In this document: positions 1 to 2,153 of the stretch, in pieces
How positions within the stretch are numbered: the stretch's first letter is position 1
Layout of the letters: every line of letters starts with the position of its first letter
Notes under the pieces: model-generated
Told to the model about the DNA's origin: nothing
The model's input: the letters and a program-made list of their open reading frames with translations, nothing else
Database searches by the model: none
IMG/VR virus record: IMGVR_UViG_2731957888_000002
Location: 6,959 to 70,958 of that record
Source of the DNA: a virus
Taxonomy: Duplodnaviria > Caudoviricetes
Strand: one strand, 5' to 3'
DNA length: 64,000 nucleotides
Made by a program: the position numbers and the translations under genes

Positions 1-2
1 AG

Positions 3-1574
3 AGCTACCGCAAGGGTAAAAAGGGCAAGGTCACCGCGCAGGACTCGGCCAAGATCGCCAAGATGGTCGGCGACTTCCACAAGCTGTCCGTCGAGAGCGT
101 CGATTCGGAAGGCCTGCTCCGCGCCATCCTATCCAACCCAAAGATGACCGCGGCCCTGCGCAACGCCTACTTCACGGATAAACATGGCGGCAAAGCCGGC
201 ATGATCTCGTCGAAGATGGATCAGTTCAATCAGGACTATGAGGAACTGAAGCACGTCGAGGCGGACCCCAAGTTCGCCGAGAAGAAGTCGCTCTACATGA
301 CGCAGGGCCTCGGGGGCTCGCTCGACAACCTGAAGGGGTCGTTCGAGACGCTGGTGCTCAACGTCGGCCAGGCCAACGAGGGGTTGATTCGGTTCGCGGC
401 GGACGGGATCGCCAAGGGCACCGACCTGTTCTCGAACCTCTCGAAGACGCAGCAGCAGGTGCTCTCCCTCGCGGCCGGCGGCGCGGCGATGGCGGGGGGT
501 GCGGCCGGCGCCTACAAGCTCACCTCTGCCCTACTCGGTGGTGGTGGCGCCTCCGTCGCGCTGGACGGCTCGGCCGCGAAGCTCACCGGAGCGGCAGCCG
601 CCCTTGAGGCGGCTGCCGCCCGCCTCGGCGCAGGCGGCATCCCCGGCGGCCCGGGCGGGAACAACGTCGCGGCAGTGCCAGGCGGCGGCCCGGGCGCGAA
701 GCCCGGCACGCCGCCGCGGGCGACGATCGGCGGGGCGCTCACCTTCATGGGGGTGGCCGGCGCCATCGGGTATGCCGGCTGGAAGGGGCTGGAAGCGGTC
801 GACGCCTGGATGCCTACCGCCCGGCCCGGCGCCCGGTTCTCGCCGCTCGGGAACGCCATCCCGGGCAAGGGGGGCGAGGTCTACGGCCCGCCGATGCCGT
901 CGCAGCGGCCCCGCAGCCTGCGCCAGATCCGCAACGGCCTCGACGCGGACGACAGGCCCTTGAGCCAGTCGTCCCCCCCACCGGCCCCGGCCGCGATCCC
1001 GACGGCGCCGAGCATGACGCTCCAGCCCGGCAACGCCTCACCCGGGATCGGGACGACCGGGCTCAAGGCCTTCGGGCTCGACGGGATCGCCGAGGGCGCG
1101 GCCAAGGCCGGCCAGGAGGCCGGCACGAAGGCTGGCGAGGGGATGCGCCAGGGCATAGAGGGGAAGCGGTCCGAGGTCATCGGCTCGGCGACCCAGACCT
1201 TCGCGTCGATCCAGGCCGTGTTCGGCGCCGGGGTCACGGTGCCGGTGCGGTTCGATACCAGCGGGGTCGCAGCGGCCGCGAGCGCCGCCAAGGCGGCGGC
1301 GTCGAGCGGCGCTTCGCAGATGGCGCAGGCCATCAGCACGCCGCTCCCCGCGGCCGCTCGCGGCGGGAGCATGAACGGCGCGGCCGACCGGATGGAGGCT
1401 GCCGCCAACCGAATGGCCGAGATGAGCGTACGGACCCACCACACGGTTGAGGTGTCGGCATCCCCCGGTCTTCAGGCCCGCACCCGGAATATGCAGGCTT
1501 CCACGAGGGGCCCGATGAGATCTGACCTCGGCGTGACGATGCCAAGTGCACGAGTGAATGGCGAATTCGTATAG
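3..1574 (+). CDS. Tape measure-like protein of the embedded element (5'-truncated by window edge)
   Basis: Frame open from position 3 (SYRKGKKGKV...); Ala/Gly-rich; last 46 aa match the C-terminus of the TMP at 17510-20821 at 36 positions (manual count). Confidence 0.85.
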   Translation, partial: SYRKGKKGKVTAQDSAKIAKMVGDFHKLSVESVDSEGLLRAILSNPKMTAALRNAYFTDKHGGKAGMISSKMDQFNQDYEELKHVEADPKFAEKKSLYMTQGLGGSLDNLKGSFETLVLNVGQANEGLIRFAADGIAKGTDLFSNLSKTQQQVLSLAAGGAAMAGGAAGAYKLTSALLGGGGASVALDGSAAKLTGAAAALEAAAARLGAGGIPGGPGGNNVAAVPGGGPGAKPGTPPRATIGGALTFMGVAGAIGYAGWKGLEAVDAWMPTARPGARFSPLGNAIPGKGGEVYGPPMPSQRPRSLRQIRNGLDADDRPLSQSSPPPAPAAIPTAPSMTLQPGNASPGIGTTGLKAFGLDGIAEGAAKAGQEAGTKAGEGMRQGIEGKRSEVIGSATQTFASIQAVFGAGVTVPVRFDTSGVAAAASAAKAAASSGASQMAQAISTPLPAAARGGSMNGAADRMEAAANRMAEMSVRTHHTVEVSASPGLQARTRNMQASTRGPMRSDLGVTMPSARVNGEFV

Positions 1575-1583
1575 GAGGCCGCC

Positions 1584-2153
1584 ATGTTCAAGATCAGCGT
1601 AGATGCATCCGCGATCCAGGCAGCCCTCCGCCGGCTCGAGGTTGCCGGCGAGAAGATGCCGTCGATCACCGCCATGGTGCTCAACAGGGTGAGCACCCGG
1701 GTCAAGCAGCGGGTCGTGGACCGCCTGCCGGAGCAGACCGGGCTCACCCGCTACACCATCACGAAGGCGATCAAGACCCGGCGGGCCTCACCCGGGAAGC
1801 TCCGGGCCGAGACCTACAGCCGGGGCGGCAACATCTCGCTCAAGTTCTTCCATCCCCGGGAGGCCCGCGGCGGGGCCGACGCCACCGTGAAGGGGCATCA
1901 CGTCCACGTCTCGGGCGGTTTCCGGCGCGCCGGCCCGCAGGGCGGCCGGCACGCGGTCAAGAAGCTCGGGGGCCACGTCTTCACCAACACGGACGGCGGA
2001 AAATGGCGGGGGCACATGCGCAAGGTGAAGTCCGGGGTGTTCATCCCGAAGGAGATGGTGACCGGCGCCAGCCTCGACGCCTTCAACCAGGTCGTCAGCC
2101 ACGACCTGGAGGCGGAAATCGCCAAGGAATTGTCCAAGATCCTCGGCAAGTAG
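1584..2153 (+). CDS. Phage minor tail protein, gpZ-like (paralog of 20812-21399)
   Basis: GGAGG RBS; basic protein sharing VLNRVxTRVK, QTGLxRYTI, RGGxISLKxFxPRE, GHVFxNTDGGxWRGH, SGVxIPxEM with 20812-21399. Confidence 0.8.
   Translation: MFKISVDASAIQAALRRLEVAGEKMPSITAMVLNRVSTRVKQRVVDRLPEQTGLTRYTITKAIKTRRASPGKLRAETYSRGGNISLKFFHPREARGGADATVKGHHVHVSGGFRRAGPQGGRHAVKKLGGHVFTNTDGGKWRGHMRKVKSGVFIPKEMVTGASLDAFNQVVSHDLEAEIAKELSKILGK

Follow-up and report, generated by a model that had tools for sequence, protein, structure and literature searches.

A putative phage satellite with terminase and tail assembly genes in the portal gene of a prophage from a high-GC, alphaproteobacterium-like host

Satellites of phages have long been thought to tamper with the heads and the DNA packaging of their helpers only. 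P4, a small satellite that integrates, depends on a helper with a contractile tail and is packaged in a helper-compatible manner, remodels the capsid by means of Sid and Psu and carries no tail genes. Reprogramming of tails was shown in 2026 for one Vibrio system. The phage-inducible chromosomal island (PICI)-like elements (PLEs) of Vibrio cholerae replace the tape measure protein (TMP), the chaperone and BhuB of phage ICP1, leading to chimeric tails with a TMP that is 95 aa and tails that are 10 nm shorter (Nature 2026, PMC12987554); tmp genes are also reported there for PLE-like elements and some capsid-forming PICIs (cf-PICIs). Helper-embedded PICIs (HE-PICIs) are described to sit in late genes of the helper and to delay their expression until excision (Tommasini, Mageeney and Williams 2023, PMC10111431), and the EPIPs of Mycolicibacterium carry a TMP and alter tails (PMC12822802). 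Here, we describe an insert in the portal gene of a prophage at the left end of a 64,000-base stretch of viral DNA (the window; bases 6959-70958 of the 70,958-base IMG/VR record IMGVR_UViG_2731957888_000002). On balance, we lean towards the view that the window starts inside a phage satellite which was integrated by its own tyrosine integrase at approximately codon 78 of the portal gene, and that the chaperone and the TMP of this satellite are swapped into the tails of the helper. The identity of the insert as a satellite is well supported by comparative evidence, and the swap into helper tails is plausible.

The record is classed as linear with a CheckV completeness of ~ 90%; contig coordinates are window coordinates plus 6958, and the 6,958 bases left of the window (loci L001 and L007) were analysed as well. 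The host of the prophage is alphaproteobacterium-like (70% GC). From window position 8483 rightwards, Pfam and PHROG searches revealed the head genes of the helper (lambda-type portal, S49 protease, gpD-like decoration protein and gpE-type capsid protein), and its tail genes are arranged in the order sheath, PF10618 tube, chaperone, TMP, gpZ-like protein, DNA_circ_N, Mu gp44/GpP hub (window 22622-23797), gp45 and Baseplate_J. Early genes encoding a primase, a helicase-type ATPase, a methylase and a helix-turn-helix (HTH) repressor are located on the right arm. As judged from these gene assignments, the helper is a temperate phage whose head is of the lambda type and whose contractile tail is of the Mu type. 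Its closest relative among GenBank phages is Microcystis phage Mae-JY30 (52% identity in the portal and 53% in the large terminase subunit, TerL), and the closest one in IMG/VR is locus L003 (portal 88%).

In Mae-JY30 and L003, in which the portal gene is uninterrupted, the stop codon of TerL abuts or overlaps the start of the portal gene. Here, TerL ends at contig position 2821 and portal homology is back only at contig position 15441 (window 8483). The helper portal (8483..9874, plus strand) extends from about codon 78 to the stop codon, shares 88% identity with residues 78-541 of the portal in L003 and matches positions 32-354 only of the Phage_portal_2 profile; an in-frame stop codon lies at 8465-8467 and the first start codon at 8561. 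The region from portal to protease is matched with ~ 97% identity by Logan contigs of four out of four public sequencing runs. Those run contigs that reach the junction diverge at contig position 15439-15441 and continue into unlike sequence, and L003 matches from there rightwards, too. Since the run contigs cease to match at this point, the right junction could be placed to the base; the segment on this attR side, from the stop codon of the integrase to the resumed portal homology, covers window positions 8425..8482. The tyrosine integrase (7183..8424, plus strand; Phage_integrase E 4.2e-24, phrog_1 E 1.8e-60), the single PF00589 match on the contig, is encoded directly before it. The insert is visible over at least 15.4 kb (contig 1-15440) and is co-oriented with the portal gene, with all genes but one on the same strand. 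The statement of the initial annotation that a TMP/gpZ-like pair lies in an integrase-bearing insert interrupting the portal gene of the prophage is thus supported by the profile, which resumes at position 32, and by the exact right junction.

The insert encodes paralogues of the chaperone, the TMP and the gpZ-like protein of the helper. The complete TMP of the element comprises 1023 aa (contig 5461-8532); its start lies 1497 bases left of the window, so that the 3' part of 523 codons occupies window positions 1..1574 on the plus strand, and the ORF (open reading frame) is intact. It matched the PHROG TMP families phrog_1533, phrog_28 and phrog_1272 as well as Pfam PF10145. It is followed by a gene encoding a gpZ-like protein of 189 aa (1584..2153, plus strand; phrog_27 E 2.7e-15). 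The counterparts in the helper are a TMP of 1103 aa (17510..20821, plus strand; phrog_28 E 1.6e-12), encoded between the sheath, tube and chaperone genes and the baseplate genes, and a gpZ-like protein of 195 aa (20812..21399, plus strand; phrog_27 E 3.5e-22). Both gpZ-like proteins matched phrog_27, annotated as "tail completion or Neck1"; with Minor_tail_Z (PF06763, cut-off 23.9 bits) the element protein scored 26.5 bits and the helper protein, below the cut-off, 19.8 bits. That the two pairs are paralogous, as the initial annotation had proposed from the pair at 17510-21399, was corroborated by BLASTP: the N-termini of the TMPs are 53% identical (102/194, element residues 1-193), the last 67 residues 61% (41/67) and the gpZ-like proteins 51% (95/187), with no meaningful similarity over the ~ 750 residues in the middle of the TMPs. 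The element TMP is 80 aa shorter than that of the helper. Its last 46 residues are identical to those of the helper TMP at 36 positions, exactly as noted before, and 19 of these 36 residues use differing codons; the proportions of non-synonymous and synonymous differences (pN and pS) amount to 0.14 and 0.64 over the 46 residues, in line with the synonymous divergence described in the initial annotation. For the N-terminus the signal of constraint is weak (pN 0.35, pS 0.57). A "lysozyme-like domain" that had been assigned to the helper TMP was not recovered, neither among Pfam families at E <= 0.01 nor by phmmer against PDB chains at E <= 0.1; the same phmmer search gave no match for the helper TMP as a whole, and the element TMP had no match among PDB sequences either. 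No similarity was found for the element TMP in GenBank phages or for the TMP C-terminus in IMG/VR.

As revealed by tblastx, the homologous block already begins 5' of the TMP, within a small gene for the chaperone (contig 5000-5329). The tail chaperone of the element consists of a 109-aa ORF with an extension in the −1 frame (contig 5000-5460) and is 59% identical, over 138 residues by tblastx, to the chaperone region of the helper (17053..17510, plus strand), which has a −1 frameshift extension as well. This extension, conserved in both copies, corresponds to the G/GT (E/E') layout of tail assembly chaperones; the element chaperone matched phrog_24302, a family for which no function is annotated.

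Read leftwards from the junction, the genes of the insert are integrase, a 178-aa ORF, a ParB-like protein, an 85-aa ORF, ~ 1.1 kb without ORFs, a DUF3800 protein and a 130-aa ORF, and, further to the left, gpZ-like protein, TMP, chaperone, ORFs of 124, 334, 90 and 124 aa (the last with an HTH-like stretch), TerL of the gpA type and the small terminase subunit (TerS; reading frame at 174-743 of L001). Pfam and PHROG scans of contig 1-15440 revealed no capsid, portal, sheath, tube, baseplate, fibre, lysis or primase family. The copy of the TMP/gpZ-like pair in the helper is succeeded by DNA_circ_N, hub, gp45 and Baseplate_J, and that of the element, as stated in the initial annotation, by no baseplate, fibre or lysis family within the insert. 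Within the visible part, the left end being unseen, the element is without structural genes for a virion of its own. Of the head, terminase and primase genes which the initial annotation had considered for the region upstream towards attL, the terminase genes are present, head and primase genes are absent and attL does not lie on the contig.

A second element embedded in a portal gene was found among the relatives of the integrase, of which IMG/VR contains two, in loci L101 (41% identity) and L100 (28%). In L101, a complete element of 10.85 kb (422-11276) is inserted at the conserved FFGVP motif of an HK97-type portal gene, which is thereby divided in two. The two halves match positions 1-236 and 223-321 of the portal profile and lie 10.8 kb apart; the insert is flanked by an 11-nt direct repeat, across which the halves join in frame. 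The integrase is again the last gene and adjoins the 3' part of the portal gene. The proteins encoded by the element include a protease (44% identical to that of its helper), a capsid protein (49%) and a TMP of 906 aa, which is 220 aa longer than the 686-aa TMP of the helper and resembles it at the ends only (33% over 282 residues at the N-terminus, 47% over 209 residues at the C-terminus). The embedding in a portal gene is repeated in one of the two integrase relatives.

Several observations weigh against the proposed satellite and its action on tails. No replication gene was recognised in the visible insert. Portal codons 1-77 are absent from the whole contig, no attL or direct repeat of at least 12 nt links the right junction to another place on it, and the contig has no terminal overlap. 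Since there is no such repeat, the left end lies beyond the contig or has been deleted, and since both attL and the portal codons are lacking, the end of the contig may have cut this copy short, or a deletion may have fixed it in place. None of the public runs spans the junction, at most a quarter of the words sampled from window 6500-10500 is present in any of them, and no RNA run is listed; gaps in the cover by the runs carry no weight as evidence. In L100, the integrase gene is located 1.5 kb from an intact portal gene. The identities of 50-60% to the helper proteins show an old divergence and no tuning to this particular helper.

Further points against it concern the gpZ-like protein, whose role is the least certain of the tail set. 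Its pN of 0.36 and pS of 0.43 give no clear signal of constraint; for this protein and the TMP N-terminus, the weak signal may be caused in part by an extreme GC content at third codon positions (GC3), which limits synonymous change. A profile of the protein found chance-level matches only among PDB sequences and its AlphaFold model is poor (pLDDT 56); a tail role is indicated by remote hidden Markov model matches only. In five related loci, the homologues lie 5' of the terminase genes or at the end of the genome and do not follow the TMP. They are encoded at L002 13046-13510, L008 8884-9477, L010 8821-9378, L012 8739-9320 and L018 2278-2889, just 5' of TerS in three loci, 5' of the ParB and methylase genes before the terminase in Mae-JY30 and at the right end of the genome in AmM-1. 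A gpZ-like gene after the TMP was seen on this contig only, and its position elsewhere is odd for a "tail completion" protein.

Some of these points could also be accounted for if the insert were what is left, in a state of decay, of another related temperate phage, which integrated into or recombined with the prophage and left tail genes without function, an explanation that we consider unlikely. The lack of a replication gene and of attL would suit it. When circularised, the insert has the order gpZ-like protein, ParB, (integrase), TerS, TerL, resembling Mae-JY30 and L012, in which the gpZ-like gene is 5' of the terminase, and the middle of the element TMP shares 52% identity over 113 residues with that of L012, a full myovirus-type locus. 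However, such a remnant would require two large deletions, separate from each other, in addition to the replacement of a gene, and all ORFs are intact, including the 1023-aa TMP and the two-frame chaperone. Moreover, the genes between TerL and the chaperone are no deletion scars, as one of them belongs to the conserved 334-aa family, which recurs beside TerS and TMP genes in small integrase islands without other structural genes. The initial annotation had contrasted the satellite with a decayed full prophage having sheath and tube genes and a deleted baseplate, and with a frameshifted TMP; no sheath, tube or baseplate gene is present upstream, and the TMP ORF is uninterrupted.

The second alternative, to which we give even less credence, is that TerS and TerL are the helper's own. 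The element would then start after the stop codon of TerL, and a deletion would have taken portal codons 1-77 together with attL, leaving an immobile element in a prophage without a portal. The position of both genes exactly where those of the helper are expected, directly 5' of the portal gene as in L003 and Mae-JY30, the CheckV completeness and the fact that tblastn found no TerL in the other 13 contexts of the 334-aa family speak for this possibility. We nevertheless favour that both genes belong to the element, for five reasons. The four runs in which the portal-to-protease region is matched with ~ 97% contain no TerS or TerL at >= 85% identity. L003 has no match to TerS, and its TerL is only 60% identical, compared to 75% for the protease and 88% for the portal; taken alone this is a weak argument, because TerL is less conserved than the portal in other relatives as well. 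TerS of the same type is encoded directly 5' of a 334-like gene in two Xanthobacter islands. L101, whose integrase belongs to the same clade, leaves the 5' half of the portal gene in place. Finally, the stop codon of TerL overlaps the GTG that opens the next ORF, and a deletion ending exactly there would be a coincidence. A sliding comparison of TerL revealed no hybrid segment. Among the 60 IMG/VR loci with a TerL relative, 32 have a TerS of this type directly 5' of TerL; the element TerS had no counterpart among GenBank phages, and Pfam Phage_Nu1 had no match on the contig.

An assembly chimera of two phages from one sample, conceivable for a fragment of a metagenome-type record whose junction occurs in no public run, is very improbable, since the junction lies beside an integrase and inside a portal gene, as it does in L101, where the att repeats are clean, no repeat is present at the junction to mislead an assembler, and the 334-aa protein is encoded on three contigs, the longest of 70,970 bases, even if these may stem from the same sample.

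The satellite that we favour was compared with the described systems. With P4 it shares the contractile-tailed helper and, as proposed, the helper-compatible packaging, and it differs from P4 in having tail genes in place of capsid-remodelling ones. The likeness to PLEs is one of gene content, the element here being known from its genes alone: both are satellites that exploit a helper with a contractile tail and encode a TMP and a chaperone of their own together with a third tail component, both are without tube, sheath, baseplate and fibre genes, and both have a TMP shorter than that of the helper (by 95 aa in PLE11, 80 aa here). They differ in that the TMP ends are 53-61% identical to the helper here and ~ 20% overall between PLE and ICP1, that the third gene is gpZ-like here and BhuB in the PLE, and that the element here lies inside the portal gene of a temperate helper prophage and has no identified Rta-like defence gene (PMC12987554). 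With HE-PICIs the element shares late genes related to those of the helper and a co-oriented insertion in a helper late gene; a putative portal site, B:Phage_portal_2:21, is listed there, the site here being at approximately profile position 35. In contrast, the integrase is the last gene here and points outward, while theirs is located upstream and points inward, Pfam and PHROG gave no indication of AlpA, Bro or primase zones in the insert, and their hosts are Enterobacterales and not a 70% GC alphaproteobacterium-like organism (PMC10111431). EPIPs are likewise satellites with TerS and TMP and an altered tail length, but they use a serine integrase, carry capsid-related genes, depend on siphovirus helpers, reside in actinobacterial hosts and are not embedded in a helper (PMC12822802). 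Of the tmp-carrying satellites mentioned for PLE-like elements and cf-PICIs (PMC12987554), the L101 element with its protease, capsid protein and TMP looks to be of this type, whereas the element of the window is without a capsid gene in the visible 15.4 kb. Tail reprogramming is, therefore, no longer new in kind, and the view of the initial annotation that only a few TMP-carrying satellites are known, in actinobacteria, is outdated by the chimeric tails of the PLEs (PMC12987554) and the TMPs of the EPIPs (PMC12822802). What is new here is the high-GC alphaproteobacterial lineage, the embedding in the portal gene, the combination of TerS and TerL with chaperone, TMP and gpZ-like protein, and a conserved marker protein.

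The following course of events is proposed for the element. After induction, the helper would supply tube, sheath and baseplate, and chaperone and TMP of the element would replace those of the helper in tail initiation by means of the helper-like ends of the TMP (194 residues at the N-terminus, 67 at the C-terminus). The conserved C-terminus of the TMP would dock in the hub of the helper, and the conserved T-domain of the chaperone would recruit the tube protein of the helper. The predicted products are chimeric tails that are shorter by the equivalent of ~ 80 residues, roughly 10–12 nm. The interrupted portal gene would delay head assembly of the helper until the satellite is excised. On this view, the element has retained a packaging set (TerS and TerL), a conserved coiled-coil protein and a tail set (chaperone, TMP and gpZ-like protein), and has no genes for capsid, portal, sheath, tube and baseplate.

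The remaining genes lie between the tail set and the junction. A 130-aa ORF of membrane/zinc-ribbon type, with a hydrophobic stretch and two CxxC pairs in its translation (2456..2848, plus strand), matched no family above threshold. The DUF3800 protein (3062..3844, minus strand; Pfam PF12686 E 4.7e-18) is encoded in a patch of low GC content (52%); it is the sole minus-strand gene of the insert and looks like a cargo or moron insertion. The adjoining ~ 1.1 kb (3845..4950) have no convincing ORF in a screen based on GC3 and may be a regulatory or origin region. Window 4078-4510 (contig 11036-11468) is matched with 16 differences by a 433-nt contig of public run X3, in which the flanking genes are absent at >= 85%, and may be a conserved module of this kind. 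A C4-type RNA, which the initial annotation had included in the gene set, was not supported: Rfam had no match in window 1-9000 at E <= 1. The ParB-like nuclease/partition-type protein of 469 aa (5245..6654, plus strand; phrog_12047 E 3.8e-33, Pfam ParB_N below the cut-off) is followed by the 178-aa ORF (6605..7141, plus strand), which has a high GC3 and no family match. The integrase gene has a GC content of 53%, compared to ~ 70% around it, and a GC3 of 59%; the GC3 of the other insert genes of at least 100 aa is 84–93%, except for the 124-aa ORF after TerL (74%) and the 130-aa ORF (76%). The closest IMG/VR relative of the integrase is encoded on a contig of 60% GC. The element may have obtained its integration module independently of its other genes. 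In the helper, the Mu-type DNA circularisation protein N (window 21396-22615) is encoded by two ORFs of 160 and 245 aa, of which PF07157 matches the first only; the gene may be split, or the protein may exist in a two-gene form. No tRNA genes were found in the window.

The 334-aa protein is predicted to consist of a helical hairpin (residues 1-147) and a small beta domain. It matched no Pfam or PHROG family, and Foldseek found nothing at E <= 0.001 in BFVD and PDB. A Psu-like identity, suggested by a weak Atlas lead (score 0.82, the other hits being unnamed clusters), was not supported by Foldseek and was discarded. No relatives were found in IMG/VR, by alignment to genome contigs or in metagenome contigs, and a word-indexed search returned eight only. 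A profile search, however, retrieved 1201 cluster representatives at E <= 0.001, of which 541 remained at <= 1e-10 and 169 at <= 1e-30. When 401 genomes were sampled from the order to which a Xanthobacter genome belongs, 10 of them contained the family, and the relatives found are alphaproteobacterial. Fourteen contexts were inspected, i.e. this contig, L068, L069 and 11 further stretches, a weak match in G240 (E 6.7e-9) being left out. Ten of them have a TMP-like gene within ~ 5 kb downstream (in one case by tblastn only, in another cut at the contig end) and nine have an integrase in the locus; in L085, L091, L092 and L094, which were searched by tblastn only, no TMP was detected.

Three of these loci have, by predicted gene content, the architecture of satellites carrying a TMP. 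L069 consists of tRNA-Ser, a P4-type integrase, HTH_36, a 255-aa protein, the 334-like protein, a 122-aa protein and a TMP of 781 aa. L086 has an integrase (29% identical to that of the window), a primase/helicase, a 125-aa protein, the 334-like protein, TerS, a 284-aa protein, a gpZ-like protein, proteins of 94 and 105 aa and a TMP, and L093 an integrase, an excisionase-type regulator, a primase, the 334-like protein, TerS, a TMP and a capsid/protease-type protein. Related elements carrying integrase and TMP, with or without gpZ-like protein and TerS, thus exist, and one, L101, lies inside a portal gene. In the Xanthobacter genome G002, three 334-like copies (L091, L092 and L068) are located in separate tRNA-linked integrase islands, which suggests several coexisting elements of the family. 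A co-resident helper TMP was sought in Xanthobacter G001 and dismissed, the matches being partial and the N- and C-terminal ones lying in two different ORFs.

Tentatively, and with less confidence than for the single element, these loci could be taken as an undescribed and fairly widespread family of alphaproteobacterial satellites which is marked by a coiled-coil protein of ~ 310–334 aa beside TerS and TMP and reprograms helper tails. The TMP ends of each lineage would be matched to its own helper, the portal-embedded members would share one integrase clade and gate the head assembly of the helper, and the coiled-coil protein would be a new assembly-redirecting factor. If the reading given here for the element in the window is true, tail reprogramming extends to temperate, Mu-type-tailed phages of high-GC Alphaproteobacteria and is combined with embedding in the portal gene. 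The conserved ends and divergent middle of the TMP in two independent composites would provide a testable map of the segments that contact chaperone and hub, and the 334-aa family, for which there is no Pfam model, may serve as a handle for finding such satellites.

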